Source: Bacteroidales bacterium (GTDB lineage: Bacteria; Bacteroidota; Bacteroidia; Bacteroidales; CG2-30-32-10). Taken from it: a DNA stretch of 58,670 bases. Where the stretch lies: positions 1 to 58,670 of the forward strand of contig JBEKEO010000001.1 in assembly GCA_050013795.1 (NCBI GenBank), read 5' to 3'. The notes beneath the pieces are model-generated. The model did no database searches and was not told where the DNA came from. It worked only from the letters and a program-made list of their open reading frames with translations. Both the position numbers and the translations under genes were made by a program. Below, piece by piece: positions 31,311 through 38,918 of this stretch; position 1 is the stretch's first letter, and every line of letters starts with the position of its first letter.

Positions 31311-31318
31311 TAAATTTG
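31311..31318 (+). promoter_or_regulatory. -7 promoter box TAAATTTG for the three-gene operon
   Basis: Exact TAnnTTTG match, 17 nt before the TTG start at 31335. Confidence 0.45.
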
Positions 31319-31334
31319 TTTTAAATTAACTGTC

Positions 31335-32213
31335 TTGGCTACTGCAACAATAAATATTAACCTTCTAAGAAGCTACGCTAATATTCTTTCTAATTCTACA
31401 TTTGAAAAGGTTGTACGCAAGAAAGATCATAAATATATTGATTATAAATTAAAGAAATATGATAAATCACTAATAAATAAGAGACCGCTTACATACAAAG
31501 AATACTTTCATCATGTACACCACACATTAAAAAACCATTACAGGAACGAATATTATTACAAGAACCTTATAATCGAAAAAATTCTTTTAGGTGAATATAA
31601 CTTAAAATCAACGACAGCAATAAATGAATTTCGAATTAACAAATCTATAGCTGATCTAGTTTTAATTAACGGGTCAAGCAAGGTATTTGAAATAAAAACT
31701 GAGTTAGATAAGCCTGACAGAATATTAAATCAAATTAATGACTATAAAAAAATCTTTAAGGAAATTTTTATTGTTACCCACTATTCTTTGAAAGAAAAAT
31801 ATCTGAATATAGTAGATAACAGCATAGGATTAATAATTCTGACGGCTGATAGTAAACTAAAAACAATCCGAGAGCCAAAGAAAAACAAAGTGTTTGATCA
31901 CACTTGTATTATGAAAAGTTTAAGGAAATCCGAATATACAAGTATTATTAAATCATATTATGGATATTTACCTGACTGCACTGATTTCCGATATTTCAAG
32001 ACTTGTATGAACCTATTCATGCAAATCCCATCTGAAAGAATTCACGATTTAGTGATATATGAATTGAAGAAAAGAACGGTTAAAGAAAAAGAAATTTTAT
32101 CATCCAAAATTGTTCCAGGCGAATTAAAACATATTTGTTTATGTCTTGATTTTAACAAACCTGAATATTCATATTTTGAAAAGTTTCTAAACAAAAAAAT
32201 CAAAATAAATTAA
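31335..32213 (+). CDS. PD-(D/E)xK nuclease-fold protein, sce7726-family-like
   Basis: The motif is E(98)...IAD(107)LVLINGSSKVFE(119)IK(121)TELDKPDR. The only canonical start after the in-frame TAA at 31311 is the TTG at 31335. The next gene starts 1 bp after this one ends. Confidence 0.7.
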   Translation: MATATININLLRSYANILSNSTFEKVVRKKDHKYIDYKLKKYDKSLINKRPLTYKEYFHHVHHTLKNHYRNEYYYKNLIIEKILLGEYNLKSTTAINEFRINKSIADLVLINGSSKVFEIKTELDKPDRILNQINDYKKIFKEIFIVTHYSLKEKYLNIVDNSIGLIILTADSKLKTIREPKKNKVFDHTCIMKSLRKSEYTSIIKSYYGYLPDCTDFRYFKTCMNLFMQIPSERIHDLVIYELKKRTVKEKEILSSKIVPGELKHICLCLDFNKPEYSYFEKFLNKKIKIN

Positions 32214-32214
32214 T

Positions 32215-33150
32215 ATGTACTTTCCATATCTTCGTGGTAAACAGTTTGAACTGATAGCCCTACGGGAAATTTGTGATTTTATTGACAATGATGAAATAAT
32301 ATCACCAATTATTGAACCAGTTAAGGAAACTACGGTCACCTTAAAAAAGACCTTAGAATGTATGATTGAAAATGAAATGAATTTTAATCTAATTATCAAT
32401 CCACAGGTAGGAGATATCAAAAGTCCTGATGATATTCTGGAAATAATTGAAGAAGTTATTAATGATTACGAAAATTATCAGCCTACTTTTATTATTAATG
32501 GCAAATCAAATTATGATTATATTTTAAATATTATTGCCGAAAACGAATTTGAGAATATTTCAATTATTTGTTATGAAATTCCTAATAATGAAAATGATTT
32601 TTTTGATTTTATAAAGAAAATTGACATTAAATATATTATTATTAGTGAAGAGATCAATAGTAAAAGATTTTTACGGGAAATCAAAAAATTAGATGTGGAT
32701 AAGATTACATTATCTGATCAGTTTAATGTTCAGAGAAAAAATGCTGATTATCAAGAAAACGATGATGAATTTTTTAGTGATGAGCATCTTTTTTATGAAG
32801 AAGAAGGGTTTGTTGGGTTCTCAGATTACCTTACAATAGGAAAAGAATATACAGATGCTGGTTTCCTTCCATATGCTGTAGTTATACATCTTACCTATGT
32901 TAATTCTAAAGAAGAAATATGGGTAAGACATTTTGTATCCGATAGTAATGATGACACTACTGATGTCGCAGGAAAATTTAGTGAAGCATTAGAGAAACTT
33001 ATTGAATTTATTGAAGAAGAAGACATTCATACAATAGCATGTGAGGAATTTCGCGAATTACATGACCAAGAATCATATTCTGGATTAGGTAGTCTGAAAA
33101 AATTATCAATAATGCACCATATTGAATTGATGTATGACTTTCTAAATTAA
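32215..33150 (+). CDS. 'Beta protein'-family / sce7725-family-like protein
   Basis: The N-terminus MYFPYLRGKQFELIALRE matches my recollection of the Beta_protein/sce7725 signature. The middle is acidic. The gene is tightly coupled to both neighbours. Confidence 0.6.
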   Translation: MYFPYLRGKQFELIALREICDFIDNDEIISPIIEPVKETTVTLKKTLECMIENEMNFNLIINPQVGDIKSPDDILEIIEEVINDYENYQPTFIINGKSNYDYILNIIAENEFENISIICYEIPNNENDFFDFIKKIDIKYIIISEEINSKRFLREIKKLDVDKITLSDQFNVQRKNADYQENDDEFFSDEHLFYEEEGFVGFSDYLTIGKEYTDAGFLPYAVVIHLTYVNSKEEIWVRHFVSDSNDDTTDVAGKFSEALEKLIEFIEEEDIHTIACEEFRELHDQESYSGLGSLKKLSIMHHIELMYDFLN

Positions 33151-33158
33151 TTCTACTT

Positions 33159-34175
33159 ATGAGATGCTGTCCTGAATGTTTCAGGGATAATGAAGTCAAA
33201 GCATTATTCCGCGGTATAAAAACCACAAATGATTGTGATTATTGTGGCAGGAAGGCAATGCCTACATTAGAAACAGTTGAACTTGAAGAGACTTTCAAAC
33301 CATTGCTTAACATTTATGAAGTTAATAAAACATCCGCTATCCTATTATCAGAAAAGATTCAATTAGATTGGAATATATTCAATCTTACAGATGATATTAT
33401 TCAAAAATTCTTTAAAGATATTTTTCCTCATGCAACTATTGGAACTCCTGATATTTTAGTTAGAGGTGTTATTAATAAAGGGGAATTAAGTGGATCCTCT
33501 TCGCTATTATTATCTCAATGGAATTCATTTAAAGATGAGATAAAAAACCATAATAGATTTTTTGTCAAAAACAGTATAGATTTTGACTTTATTGAAGAAA
33601 TTATTATTGATCTTGCTCACGAATACCATGCTGGAAAAACACAATTTTTCAGGGGTCGTATATCTACAAATAAAGGGTGGGATATGAAAGATTTAAACAA
33701 ACCACCTGCTGATAAATCATCAGCCGGCAGGGCGAATCCTGTTGGAATTCCGTATTTATATGTGTCTCTGGACGAAGAAACTACATTATATGAAACGAGG
33801 GCTACATATCTTGATTTTGTTACAATTGGAACATTTGAATTAGTTGAAGACATAAAAATTGTTCGGTTCAGATCAATTCATGAAATGAGTCCATTTGTAA
33901 TGAATAATCTTGAAAAATATTCCGAATACCAAGGGTTTTTAGTTCAACTTGAAAAAGAATTATCAGAACCTTTACGCAGGTATGATTCAGAATTAGATTA
34001 TTTGCCAACTCAATATTTATGTGAATTTGTAAAGTCACAAGGATATGATGGGGTTGAATATGGTAGTGCAATGAATAAAGGAGGAATAAATTTAGCAATA
34101 TTTAATGACAATAAGTTAAAATGTGTCAGTAAAAAAGTTATAGAAATTAAAAATATAATTATTGATTATTGTTAA
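33159..34175 (+). CDS. Zinc-ribbon plus RES-domain protein (predicted NAD+-consuming toxin/effector)
   Basis: N-terminal zinc ribbon CPEC...(x25)...CDYC. The RES signature is FFRGR...AGRANPVGIPYLYVSLDEETTLYETRA...YLPTQYLCEFVKSQGYDGVEYGSAMNKGGINLAIFN, which contains the R, E and S positions. Confidence 0.8.
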   Translation: MRCCPECFRDNEVKALFRGIKTTNDCDYCGRKAMPTLETVELEETFKPLLNIYEVNKTSAILLSEKIQLDWNIFNLTDDIIQKFFKDIFPHATIGTPDILVRGVINKGELSGSSSLLLSQWNSFKDEIKNHNRFFVKNSIDFDFIEEIIIDLAHEYHAGKTQFFRGRISTNKGWDMKDLNKPPADKSSAGRANPVGIPYLYVSLDEETTLYETRATYLDFVTIGTFELVEDIKIVRFRSIHEMSPFVMNNLEKYSEYQGFLVQLEKELSEPLRRYDSELDYLPTQYLCEFVKSQGYDGVEYGSAMNKGGINLAIFNDNKLKCVSKKVIEIKNIIIDYC

Positions 34176-34268
34176 AAAATAATTGTGAATTATAGTAATT
34201 TTTATTTGTAACCAAAATTTCCTCTATTCCGGTCACCATTATTTCCTTAACCCCTAATCCTTTTTTGC

Positions 34269-34297
34269 ATTGCTTTTTTAAGCAATTATTGTGTTTT
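34269..34297 (+). terminator. Weak candidate terminator for the three-gene operon
   Basis: 7-bp stem attgctt/aagcaat with a tttt loop, then a T-rich tract. Confidence 0.3.
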
Positions 34298-34350
34298 CAC
34301 ATCATGGTAAAGATTGTAACCCTTCCCTGCAATTTCCATAGCAAAAGCAT

Positions 34351-34381
34351 AAAAAAGCCCCGCCATTTAAGGCAGAGCTTT
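34351..34381 (-). terminator. Rho-independent terminator for the 34448-35188 gene
   Basis: On the minus strand, agctctgcc-ttaaat-ggcggggct (with G-U pairs) is followed by TTTTTT. Confidence 0.55.
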
Positions 34382-34447
34382 CAGCCATGAAACCAACAAT
34401 TAACCACTACTGCACTTCCGCCTGCATTAGTATATCGTTATGCGCCT

Positions 34448-35188
34448 TTAATTAATAATGCTGCTTGCCACAGGACTTTGAGATGCAGGCTTTTTTGTTT
34501 TCTTGTCAACATAAACTGCTACATAATATTCTGTTTTACCTGCATTTGCAGTAAAAGCGTTAACAAATTTCCCCCTGCTTGCCTCGCCCAGGTAACCGCC
34601 GCCCAAAGCTATTAATGCGGCGAGGTCGGCTATTACCAAACCTGCTGCGCCCGTATATCCGTAAACATCAACACGTAACATACCTTTTGGCACCCTGCGT
34701 TTTCCTGTAATATTATTATGAATATGCAAAGTATGTACGTCGTGAGTGTTTACATTTATTTCCACTATAACCGGGTGACTGGAAAGCACTATTCCTTTTT
34801 CAGTAGCCACAGTTGTAGTGATGTGTCCGCTGTCAATGTTTTTAATTCCATAACCCAGTAATTTAGCTTTAGAAGCATCGCCTCCAATAGCTACCTGTGT
34901 CTGGCTGCGCCATTGGTCAACAAAAATATCGTTAATAGCGCTGCCGTTTTTGTGTATGTTTTCGGTAACCTGCTTCATCTGTTCCATAAGCGCATCTCTT
35001 TCGTTGTAATAATTATTCTGAGTGGTGATCATACCAAGAACAGTTGCAGGTGTAGGAGTCAGCCCCGGAACCAGGGTTGGATTAGCCTGATGTGCGTTAG
35101 CAATATCAGTTTGTTTCTTTGCCTTAGCGGCTTCACTTAAGCCATAAAAGCTTAAAATGAGGATCAGTTTTTTAATTAGTTTTCCCAT
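34448..35188 (-). CDS. Hypothetical secreted protein
   Basis: 246-aa ORF with an N-terminal hydrophobic signal (LILILSFYGLSEA). I recognise no family. Confidence 0.6.
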   Translation of the reverse strand: MGKLIKKLILILSFYGLSEAAKAKKQTDIANAHQANPTLVPGLTPTPATVLGMITTQNNYYNERDALMEQMKQVTENIHKNGSAINDIFVDQWRSQTQVAIGGDASKAKLLGYGIKNIDSGHITTTVATEKGIVLSSHPVIVEINVNTHDVHTLHIHNNITGKRRVPKGMLRVDVYGYTGAAGLVIADLAALIALGGGYLGEASRGKFVNAFTANAGKTEYYVAVYVDKKTKKPASQSPVASSIIN

Positions 35189-35280
35189 AATTTTTATTTT
35201 TTAAATTGTTTGTTATTAGATTTAAGTTGTTTGAATATAGTAGTAAGATATTATTATTAACATAAGTGTTTTCGGGCTTT

Positions 35281-35595
35281 ACATTTGCCCTGAATGTAAC
35301 AACATTTGCCCTGAATGTAACAACATTTGCCCCGAATGTATCAACATTTGCCACTTTTGAACGCTCGTAAACCATACATGTAACAACATTTGTTCTGAAT
35401 GTATCAACATTTGCCCTGAATGGTTCAACTTTTGCCACTTCTGAACGCTCGTAAATCATACATGTAACAACATTTATTCTGAATGTATCAACATTTGCCA
35501 TAAATGTATCGTCATTTGCCACCTCTGAACGCTCGAAGATCATTTATGTAGCTACATTTATTATTCATGGTTCAACATTTATGATGTATGTAAAG
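35281..35595. repeat. Tandem array of 15 x 21 bp (unit ACATTTGCCCTGAATGTAACA) with an 84-bp super-period
   Basis: Units were counted from 35281 in exact 21-bp phase. The segment ttgccacYtYtgaacgctcg recurs at 35348, 35432 and 35516, which is 84-bp spacing. Confidence 0.92.
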
Positions 35596-36374: not shown

Positions 36375-38918
36375 ATGAAGATTTCGTATAACTGGCTTAA
36401 ACAATACGCTGATATTGACATAGAGCCGGAAGAATTATCAAAAGTGCTTACCAATTGCGGTCTTGAAGTTGAGGCGCTGGATGAGTTCTGTTCTGTAAAA
36501 GGCGGACTTAAAGGCTGTGTGATAGGCGAAGTGAAGACCAAGACCAAACATCCCGATGCCGATAAGCTTAGCTTAACTACTGTTGATATAGGCAGGGAAG
36601 AACTGCTGCATATAGTTTGCGGCGCTCCCAATGTGGAAGCCGGTCAGAAGGTGGTGGTGGCAACTGTGGGCACAACCTTATATACCTCCAAAGGCGAACT
36701 TGAGTTAAAGAAAGCAAAGATACGCGGCGAGGTTTCGGAAGGCATGATATGCGCCGAAGATGAGCTTGGAATAGGCGAATCGCATGCAGGTATCATGGTG
36801 CTTGATGCTGATGTAAAAGTAGGTACTCCCGCAAGCGAGTATTTTAAGATAGAAACAGACAGTGTATTTGAAATTGGCCTTACTCCCAATCGTGCCGATG
36901 CCATGGGGCATATAGGTGTGGCAAGGGATGCCGTGGCTGCCTTAAGTTGTGTAAAGAATAAAACCTATCATCTTACAAAACCTAAACTTGATGATTTCAA
37001 GGTTGACAATCACGAACTGAAAATTGATGTGGTCATTGATGATGCTAAGGCCTGTCCGCGATATGCAGGGATAACCGTTACAAATGTAAAGGTGAAAGAA
37101 TCGCCTGCATGGCTACAAAACAAGCTGAAAGCAGTAGGTTTAAGGCCTATCAATAATATAGTTGACATCACCAATTATATCCTTTTTGAAACCGGTCAAC
37201 CGCTGCATGCCTTTGATGCAGACAAGATAGCAGGGAAAAAGATAATTGTAAAAAAGCTGGCTGCCGGAACTAAATTCACCACTCTGGATGAAGTTGAACG
37301 CGAACTTCTTCCAACAGATTTGATGATCTGCAATGCATCCGAAGGCATGTGCATAGCAGGTGTTTTTGGCGGTACTAAATCAGGAGTTACCGAAAACACT
37401 CACAATATATTTATTGAAAGCGCTTATTTCGATACGGTACATGTTCGTAAAACCTCCAAGCATCACGGATTGAAGACCGATGCTTCATTCCGTTTCGAAC
37501 GTGGCGTTGACCCCAATATGGTGATATTCGCATTGAAACATGCCGCTATGATGATGAAGGAAATTGCCGGTGGTAGTATTTCATCAGATATCGTTGATGT
37601 ATATCCTGAGCCTATTAAAAATTTCAATTTTGATATTAAGTATGCCAATGTTGATAAGCTGATAGGGAAGGTCATTGACAGGGCTACCTTAAAGAAAATA
37701 TTGACTTCACTTGAAATTGAGATTGTATCTGAAACTGCCGAAGGGCTTGCACTTTCGGTTCCTCCTTTCAAAGTGGATGTGCTGCGCGAAGCCGATGTGG
37801 TAGAGGAAATACTCAGGATATACGGGTATAATAACATAGAAGAGCCACAGCAATTCAGGATATCACCATCGAAAGCTCCGGACCCTGACAAAGAAAAGAT
37901 ACAAAACACCATTGCTGACTACCTTAGCAGTTGCGGGTTCAACGAGATCATGAATAATTCGCTTACCAATAGATCATATACCGAAGACAATACTTTTTTC
38001 CGGTCAGGATTAAATGTTTCTATACTGAACCCCCTGAGCAATGAGCTTGCTGTGATGAGGCAAACGCTTTTATTCGGCGGACTTGAATCCGTTCTGTATA
38101 ACATCAACAGGAAGAATTTCAATTTGAAGTTGTATGAATTCGGGAAAGTTTATACTGATAGTAAAAAGGCCGATTCAACGAATTCATTGGCTTCTTTTCA
38201 CGAAAAAGAACAACTGGCGCTATTCGTAAGCGGTAGTGATTACAGCGACAAATCTGTTTATTCTGGTGTAAGTGGGTATTCTGGTGTAAGTGGATATTCT
38301 GGTGAGAGTGGATATACCGGATATAGTGGATATTCTGGATATAGTGGAAAAGAAAAACCTGTTGATTTTTATTTTCTGAAAACTTACATAAATAATATTT
38401 TTACACGGTTAGGTATAAATGTAAATTCTCTTTCAATAAAAGAGATTAGCAATGAAATTTTCATTGAGGGGTTTGAATATAGTTCAAATGGCTTGCTGAT
38501 TGCTTCTTATGGAACAATCGGGAAAGCCATTTTAAAGAAATTCGATATAAAAAAGTATGTGTTTTATGCTGAGATGGAATGGCAAAAACTGATTGAATTA
38601 TCAGCTAAGAATGAGATTATTGTTAAGGATATTCCTCGGTTTCCCGAGGTGCGCCGCGACCTCTCCTTACTGATTGATAAAAAGATAAAATTCTCCGAGA
38701 TAGAAGAGATTGCTTACAAGACAGAATCAAAATTGTTGAAGCAAGTCAACCTGTTCGATATTTATCAGGGCGAAAAGTTAGGTGCAGATAAAAAATCCTA
38801 TGCGGTCAGTTTTACTTTGCTTGATGAGGATAAAACCCTTACCGATGCTGAGATAGAGCGCATCATGAATAAGCTGATGAAAGCATATACTGAAAAACTT
38901 CAGGCAGTGATCAGATAG
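36375..38918 (+). CDS. pheT: Phenylalanine--tRNA ligase beta subunit
   Basis: MKISYNWLKQY..., tRNA-binding domain KHPDADKLSLTTVDIG, and B3/4, B5 and FDX-ACB-like C-terminal domains. Confidence 0.93.
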   Translation: MKISYNWLKQYADIDIEPEELSKVLTNCGLEVEALDEFCSVKGGLKGCVIGEVKTKTKHPDADKLSLTTVDIGREELLHIVCGAPNVEAGQKVVVATVGTTLYTSKGELELKKAKIRGEVSEGMICAEDELGIGESHAGIMVLDADVKVGTPASEYFKIETDSVFEIGLTPNRADAMGHIGVARDAVAALSCVKNKTYHLTKPKLDDFKVDNHELKIDVVIDDAKACPRYAGITVTNVKVKESPAWLQNKLKAVGLRPINNIVDITNYILFETGQPLHAFDADKIAGKKIIVKKLAAGTKFTTLDEVERELLPTDLMICNASEGMCIAGVFGGTKSGVTENTHNIFIESAYFDTVHVRKTSKHHGLKTDASFRFERGVDPNMVIFALKHAAMMMKEIAGGSISSDIVDVYPEPIKNFNFDIKYANVDKLIGKVIDRATLKKILTSLEIEIVSETAEGLALSVPPFKVDVLREADVVEEILRIYGYNNIEEPQQFRISPSKAPDPDKEKIQNTIADYLSSCGFNEIMNNSLTNRSYTEDNTFFRSGLNVSILNPLSNELAVMRQTLLFGGLESVLYNINRKNFNLKLYEFGKVYTDSKKADSTNSLASFHEKEQLALFVSGSDYSDKSVYSGVSGYSGVSGYSGESGYTGYSGYSGYSGKEKPVDFYFLKTYINNIFTRLGINVNSLSIKEISNEIFIEGFEYSSNGLLIASYGTIGKAILKKFDIKKYVFYAEMEWQKLIELSAKNEIIVKDIPRFPEVRRDLSLLIDKKIKFSEIEEIAYKTESKLLKQVNLFDIYQGEKLGADKKSYAVSFTLLDEDKTLTDAEIERIMNKLMKAYTEKLQAVIR
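38259..38348 (+). repeat. In-frame 9-bp microsatellite in pheT encoding (Y-S/T-G / V/E-S-G) x 10
   Basis: The sequence tat tct ggt gta agt ggg tat tct ggt gta agt gga ... tat agt gga gives 30 codons with Gly at every third position. Confidence 0.9.

Follow-up and report, generated by a model that had tools for sequence, protein, structure and literature searches.

A mobile sce7726-sce7725-RES gene trio from a Bacteroidales genome: a candidate abortive-infection system of the gop-beta-cII kind with a different effector

What purpose would keep three genes packed head to tail on one strand of a Bacteroidales genome, amid neighbors as ordinary as pheT, tatC, GNAT and dsbD? The question is posed by a locus in a Bacteroidales bacterium (CG2-30-32-10; assembly GCA_050013795.1, contig JBEKEO010000001.1), of which we analyzed a stretch of 58,670 nt, referred to below as the window. 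Gene 1 (31335-32213, + strand) has a TTG start and encodes 292 amino acids, gene 2 (32215-33150, +) encodes 311 and gene 3 (33159-34175, +) encodes 338, with a gap of 1 bp between the first two and of 8 bp between the last two. A preliminary description of positions 31311-34297 had reported these three same-strand genes and their AT-richness, and both observations were confirmed: the open reading frame (ORF) coordinates reproduce the gaps, and no other 2.8-kb stretch of the window is as poor in GC as the operon, at 28.4% compared with 37.0% on average (the minimum among 502 non-overlapping windows is 32.5%). The same description had taken the trio for a defense or abortive-infection system, and by analogy this is still its best reading. 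With moderate confidence, we favor the view that the three genes form a toxin-antitoxin-like abortive-infection (anti-phage) system that resembles the gop-beta-cII system of satellite phage P4 and has a different toxin, one predicted to target NAD+.

The link to P4 is made by gene 1, which matched the NCBIfam family sce7726_fam (NF033832) at 1.8e-51 (174.7 bits, cut-off 70) and which, judged by its sequence, is a clear homologue of P4 cII. BLASTP aligned the two proteins at 1e-8, both belong to phrog_984, the PADLOC ‘cll’ model PDLC02989 detected gene 1 at 4.5e-16 (and P4 cII itself at 3.2e-113), and PF26915 (Phage_P4_cII) is precomputed on gene 1 and on all 120 of its listed homologues. RefSeq, in turn, labels P4 cII a ‘sce7726 family protein’ and P4 beta a ‘beta family protein’. 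The gop-beta-cII system has been shown to protect Escherichia coli from both lambda and P1 (Rousset et al. 2022, PMC9122126), and gene 1 thus falls into the family of a component of a tested anti-phage system, so that the earlier statement that sce7726 and sce7725 proteins have no experimentally assigned function no longer holds. For the same reason, the claim that the locus represents a new defense architecture had to be corrected: it varies a known type of system, from which it differs in its effector.

What type of protein gene 1 encodes was also apparent. The E...D-x11-E-x-K motif, previously proposed to denote a restriction-endonuclease fold, corresponds to E98...D107...E119-x-K121 (31626-31697, +), and all four residues are invariant across 38 homologues. 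Foldseek searches of the Protein Data Bank (PDB) with an AlphaFold2 model of mean predicted local distance difference test score (pLDDT) 93.8 returned PD-(D/E)xK proteins as matches, in agreement with this motif: the best was 3dnx (SPO1766, one of the MmcB-like/DUF1052 proteins; E 1.4e-4), followed by SfsA, NucS/EndoMS and SduA, with Card1/Can2 also among the top. The invariant residues and the structural matches together identify the modeled fold as that of a PD-(D/E)xK, MmcB-like nuclease. The match to 3dnx is confined to a core of ~130 residues (TMq 0.28), and gene 1 differs from it in having extra helical regions at both its N and C termini. Sequence searches, with single sequences and with profiles, reached no relative of solved structure for gene 1, gene 2 or gene 3.

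Gene 3 was borne out as the zinc-ribbon-RES protein it had been thought to be. Its RES domain (residues 167-326; 33657-34136, +) matched the Pfam family at 1.7e-15 (57.8 bits, cut-off 23.2), and R191, E212 and S303 do not vary across 75 homologues. In the same 75 proteins, the cysteines of the zinc ribbon (C4, C7, C26 and C29; 33168-33245, +) are conserved at 99-100% for the first three and at 96% for C29. In addition, residues 23-139 (33225-33575, +) correspond to HEPN/RES N-terminal domain 1, defined by Pfam as an N-terminal domain common to HEPN and RES proteins; the HEPN_RES_NTD1 match is below threshold in gene 3 itself (6e-5), and among 37 relatives of gene 3 the domain was found in 30 and RES in all 37. 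Orthologues of gene 3 bear the RefSeq label ‘RES family NAD+ phosphorylase’. RES toxins of the Xre-RES/MbcT type consume NAD+, which we take to be the chemistry to expect of gene 3 also.

Gene 2 was the most demanding of the three. The preliminary description had recognized in it a signature of ‘Beta protein’ and sce7725 proteins, and the second half of this claim was upheld by a match to NCBIfam sce7725_fam (NF033831) at 8.8e-94 (314.7 bits, cut-off 60); profile searches of the kind it had proposed thereby placed all three products, in the sce7726, sce7725 and RES families. The first half, the connection to the Pfam Beta protein family, stood only as a remote one. PF14350, the profile of that family, matched 22 of 44 sce7725 members, in every case below threshold (best 0.0017), and was the only Pfam family to match them repeatedly, every other family being matched once. 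Alignments of sce7725 with beta family profiles by hhalign were colinear, with E-values of 3-6e-4 and probabilities of 29-42%; between gene 2 and P4 beta as a single sequence, hhalign found no match. Both families share the N-terminal motif Y-x-P-x-x-R-x4-E, with invariant Y, P, R and E at identical spacing, and both adjoin a cII-family gene. From these sequence comparisons, we infer a probable, distant homology between gene 2 and P4 beta.

The AlphaFold2 model of gene 2 (pLDDT 88.8) consists of alternating strand-helix units and is TIM-barrel-like. Its best PDB matches in Foldseek were TIM barrels (TrpA, NAL, GP-PDE), and these were weak (E ~1e-3, TM-score <= 0.41). Invariant polar residues, namely R7, E34, N62, D204, H225, H239, K254, K295, K296 and H302, are situated mostly at or after strand ends in the model, which suggests a pocket. 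A Foldseek search of BFVD produced one good match, to an uncharacterized protein of Gordonia phage Powerball (3e-9). That protein could not be linked to the beta family; a tblastn search of a phage collection with P4 beta failed to reach it.

How constant the association of these genes is was determined in two surveys. For the first, species-representative genomes were scanned with the sce7725 alignment, yielding 80 loci, mostly of Bacteroidota; the second was centered on a Rhizobium copy and matched at least 599 genome stretches, of which 80 loci were surveyed, from Proteobacteria, Acidobacteriota, Actinobacteria, Verrucomicrobia, Nitrospinae and others. The co-occurrence on which the earlier proposal depended was found: the complete trio was present in 156 of the 160 loci, in many phyla. 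All three genes were present in 77 of 80 loci in the first survey, adjacent and in the same order in 74, the three exceptions being two contig ends and one locus (L060) with a Schlafen/AlbA_2 protein in third place; in the second survey, the trio was present in 79 of 80, the sole exception being cut by a contig end. In 140 of the 156 complete loci (74/77 and 66/79 in the first and second surveys, respectively), all three genes point the same way and the cII-like gene leads. Genes 2 and 3 commonly have start/stop overlaps of -1 or -4, consistent with these being co-translated partners. No fourth gene recurred among 794 neighbors from ~150 loci, where the largest cluster of neighbors had at most six members, and 128 flanking proteins were spread over 164 Pfam families, with Phage_integrase the most frequent (6).

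Two departures from the standard arrangement were noted. In 5 of ~150 trio loci, and not in the window, a gene of ~200 amino acids without a Pfam match immediately follows RES in the same orientation (e.g., L009:7993-8601, +); in a subclade, this gene may serve as an optional fourth component. At another locus (L076:5837-7155), an ORF of 282 amino acids on the opposite strand, which looks transposase- or Rpn-like, splits the RES gene, and all that remains of RES is a 118-residue C-terminal fragment.

The three genes are therefore a self-contained, horizontally mobile cassette that is fixed across phyla, its mobility being evident from the lowest GC of the window, the ever-different neighbors, the copies on plasmids and an integrative and conjugative element (ICE), and the absence of the trio from the closest relative. 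Copies were located on a Rhizobium plasmid, on a Moraxella plasmid (beside Tn3), on an ICE of Salmonella houtenae (next to genes for an integrase and a caspase-like protease) and on a contig of the human-gut viral fraction; most of the surveyed copies are chromosomal and without flanking mobile genes. The genome closest to ours (PheT 87.5% identical) shares synteny only rightward of 35.7 kb and lacks the trio there, and no close relative came up when the cyclase gene upstream was used for a second scan, so that no target-site boundaries could be defined. A purely core, syntenic setting, which would have spoken for a different role, was thus not what was seen. In genome papers on Delftia and Leptospira, genes of the trio are listed within strain-specific islands, and the legend for the Delftia tsuruhatensis TR1180 island (PMC8248536) names a RES NAD+ phosphorylase, an ‘ATP-binding protein’, an sce7726 protein, a NADAR family protein and a recombinase. 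The label ‘ATP-binding protein’ is also borne by an sce7725 homologue in record LR723678, and the NADAR protein beside RES in the TR1180 island could be a counter-activity or an accessory.

Although RES is the third gene in the great majority of sce7725 loci, this position is not immutable. In a metagenome-assembled genome of Mucilaginibacter, the sce7726-sce7725 pair is followed by a Schlafen/AlbA_2 protein of 386 amino acids (L060:7209-8366, +) with no RES, and on Enterococcus faecium plasmid p114-2 (L084:5108-7513) the sce7725 gene lies between an unrecognizable 295-aa ORF and a GNAT acetyltransferase, again with no RES; both Schlafen/AlbA_2 and GNAT are rare as third genes. A seeming phage copy, ‘Listeria phage LM 4-14-1’ (L094), was set aside, as it is the same DNA as the E. 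faecium plasmid region and looks mislabeled. In P4-type loci, the cII-beta pair is accompanied by Gop, a protein with two transmembrane segments. That the third gene varies while the pair is kept points to the third gene as the effector and to the pair as a regulatory or sensing core. Extrapolating from this, we tentatively entertain a broader idea, in which the cII-like nuclease and the beta/sce7725 barrel would be the conserved sensing core of a phylum-spanning defense superfamily with interchangeable effectors (two-transmembrane Gop, RES, Schlafen/AlbA_2 or GNAT), and the barrel would be an enzyme or a ligand sensor and not a passive antitoxin. It is a possibility to which we give less than even weight.

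Depletion of NAD+ is a recurrent effector logic in anti-phage systems. In the abortive-infection reading that we favor, the RES protein would be the effector and would remain inactive until infection, whereupon it would be released to attack NAD+ by phosphorolysis or depletion, in the manner of MbcT and the RES-Xre toxins, leading to arrest or death of the cell; ADP-ribosylation of a target is a less likely chemistry. The sce7725 barrel protein, as the putative counterpart of P4 beta, would silence the effector and/or couple it to a signal of infection. The cII-like PD-(D/E)xK protein would be the third core component, probably a sensor of nucleic acid or else a second, nucleolytic effector. 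This division of labor is a proposal, as is the wiring of a nuclease-fold sensor to a NADase in the preliminary description. An anti-phage role is suggested by the membership of gene 1 in the P4 cII family, by the protection that gop-beta-cII affords and by PD-lambda-2, in which a beta-like third component is dispensable for neutralization of the toxin and required for defense (Vassallo et al. 2022, bioRxiv 10.1101/2022.05.12.491691).

Several observations weigh against this reading. The relationship between gene 2 and beta is below significance in every single test, gene 2 itself matches neither Pfam Beta_protein nor the PADLOC ‘beta’ model, and the two proteins fall into different PHROGs (phrog_34524 and phrog_9159, respectively). 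The RES clade of gene 3 is too distant from MbcT, ParT and RES-Xre for its profile to reach any solved structure, and the NAD+ chemistry of gene 3 is for that reason a prediction. The PADLOC check advocated in the preliminary description succeeded for gene 1, through ‘cll’, and failed for genes 2 and 3, which PADLOC 2.0 leaves unmatched. Likewise, the anticipated defense islands were evident only to a modest degree: the 128 neighbors included a pair of type I methyltransferases and a pair of DUF559 proteins, and a PADLOC scan of neighbors gave mostly redundant reverse-transcriptase models. No integrase is present in the flanks within the window. Finally, the gene order differs, with gop-beta convergent with cII in P4 and the trio co-directional as cII, beta and toxin.

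Could the same genes be explained otherwise? One rival reading is that they are a plain addiction module, which would stabilize plasmids, ICEs and islands by post-segregational killing and do nothing against phages. The copies on plasmids and an ICE would suit such a module, as would the tight coupling of the genes, which is as in toxin-antitoxin operons, and the precedent of RES-Xre pairs, which are classical toxin-antitoxin systems (cited within PMC9503650). We nevertheless think it unlikely, for most of the surveyed copies are chromosomal and have no mobile genes beside them, three genes including a conserved nuclease-fold protein are more than addiction needs, and the homologous P4 system and PD-lambda-2 protect against phages.

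A second rival keeps the phage and rewires the parts, with the PD-(D/E)xK protein as the killing nuclease, RES as the maker of an ADP-ribose-derived signal and the barrel as the protein that binds or processes that signal. The invariant nuclease motif of gene 1 fits well with this, and so do residues R7, E34, N62, D204, H225 and H239 of gene 2, which are at or just after beta-strand ends, the typical place of a TIM-barrel active site; RES and other ART-superfamily domains have also been discussed as signal generators (PMC9503650). It is equally improbable in our estimation, however, as the cII-beta pair of P4-type loci works with a small two-transmembrane protein incapable of making such a signal, and the gene that varies is the third one, which marks it as an effector rather than a signaler. 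The weakest rival, a housekeeping operon of the host for NAD+ metabolism or DNA repair, has the ordinary flanking genes in its favor and can be dismissed as very improbable given the anomalous GC of the operon, its absence from the syntenic region of the closest relative, its sporadic occurrence across phyla with neighbors that are always different, and its copies on plasmids and an ICE, all of which agree with the original opinion that a conserved, mobile and self-contained trio is not a metabolic operon.

The surroundings of the trio contribute less. TAAATTTG (31311-31318, +), which fits the Bacteroidota -7 box TAnnTTTG, is 16 nt 5′ of the start codon of gene 1 and is a possible promoter. 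The exact box that had been described is thus present, but the motif is no commoner than chance in the window (81 occurrences versus 84 expected), so that a promoter role is suggested by its position alone. At the other end, position 34297, the right-hand limit of the region originally described, coincides with nothing but a weak AT-rich hairpin (ATTGCTT/AAGCAAT) with a T-rich tail (34269-34298, +; hairpin 34269-34286). The hairpin has a folding energy of -6.2 kcal/mol (z -1.55), 18 of 200 shuffled sequences fold equally well, and it is at most a weak terminator; a terminator scan called none on the + strand after gene 3, and a strong hairpin at 34353-34382 was assigned to the convergent gene on the - strand. 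Further to the right, 34448-35543 (-) contains two overlapping ORFs of 246 and 123 amino acids without Pfam matches, the shorter product being internally repetitive with ERSEVAN...DTF...ANV units. The pheT gene (36375-38918, +) has a low-complexity insert, SGVSGYSGVSGYSGESGYTGYSGYSGYSG, in the middle of the protein, and the DNA of this insert (~38244-38345) lies within a gap between the BLAST segments to the closest relative.

Why the trio would merit attention follows from what it keeps and what it replaces. It retains the cII-like and, probably, the beta-like component of a validated anti-phage system and appears to have swapped a membrane toxin for an enzyme, whose predicted readout is the loss of NAD+. 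It is also far more widespread than the P4 form, occurring in Bacteroidota, Proteobacteria, Acidobacteriota, Actinobacteria and gut bacteria, and on plasmids and ICEs. If the trio defends, a common system would be added to defense annotation, particularly in Bacteroidota, RES would join the NAD+-depleting effectors of multi-gene immunity, and comparison could help to show what is sensed by the cII nuclease and by the beta barrel. Should the more tentative superfamily idea be true, the RES trio, with its at least 599 species-level genomes, would be the commonest form and a tractable route to the mechanism of gop-beta-cII.

The literature searched held no paper on the sce7726-sce7725-RES trio, only incidental mentions in genome papers and papers on gop-beta-cII, and three known systems of differing closeness can be compared with it. 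The RES-Xre systems (MbcTA of Mycobacterium tuberculosis, RES-Xre of Pseudomonas putida, and ParST) act by phosphorolysis or depletion of NAD+ or by ADP-ribosylation (cited within PMC9503650), and gene 3 resembles their toxins in having a RES domain with conserved R, E and S. It is, however, twice as long as the RES proteins of these systems, to which it adds a zinc ribbon and HEPN_RES_NTD1, and its partners are TIM-barrel-like and nuclease-fold proteins in place of Xre: no gene for an Xre-type helix-turn-helix (HTH) antitoxin (DUF2384/COG5642) is in the operon, and none recurs among the neighbors of ~150 loci. PD-lambda-2, which consists of a HigB-like protein, an Xre-peptidase and component C, is a toxin-antitoxin-like three-gene defense system with a beta-family protein; P4 beta matches the PADLOC model PD-Lambda-2_C at 8e-14. 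It differs from the trio in its toxin logic and in lacking a cII-like nuclease and RES, and gene 2 did not match the PD-Lambda-2_C models. A gop-beta-cII-type locus of Pseudomonas aeruginosa (L096:6264-6859) has a HigB-like toxin and an HTH_3 gene directly beside cII, a pair that recalls the HigB-like and Xre components of PD-lambda-2, also a system with a beta-like protein.

The relative that the trio most invites comparison with is gop-beta-cII itself, whose three proteins are those of the PADLOC models gop, beta and cll (Rst_gop_beta_cll in DefenseFinder). Gop is toxic without beta (Ghisotti 1990, cited by PMC9122126), a phage accessory gene, orf184, triggers cell death via the system (bioRxiv 10.1101/2023.04.06.535777), and the HHpred table of Rousset et al. 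lists cII as MmcB-like and Gop as a two-transmembrane protein (PMC9122126). Both are three-gene, toxin-antitoxin-like cassettes on mobile DNA, both have a cII-family gene with an MmcB-like PD-(D/E)xK fold, and gene 2 resembles beta in its length, its N-terminal motif and its weak colinear profile matches. The beta-like protein of the trio belongs to a family of its own, sce7725 as opposed to PF14350, and the taxonomic range of the trio is much wider. Canonical gop-beta-cII loci have a gene of 109-161 amino acids directly 5′ of beta; the ORF list of our locus holds no small two-transmembrane Gop ORF upstream of gene 2, and no similarity was found between gene 3 and Gop. Where P4 has a toxin of 133 amino acids with two transmembrane segments, the trio has a cytosolic protein of 338 amino acids composed of a zinc ribbon, NTD1 and RES. 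With its toxin and its arrangement both different, we class the trio as a variant of the gop-beta-cII kind and not as a member of it.

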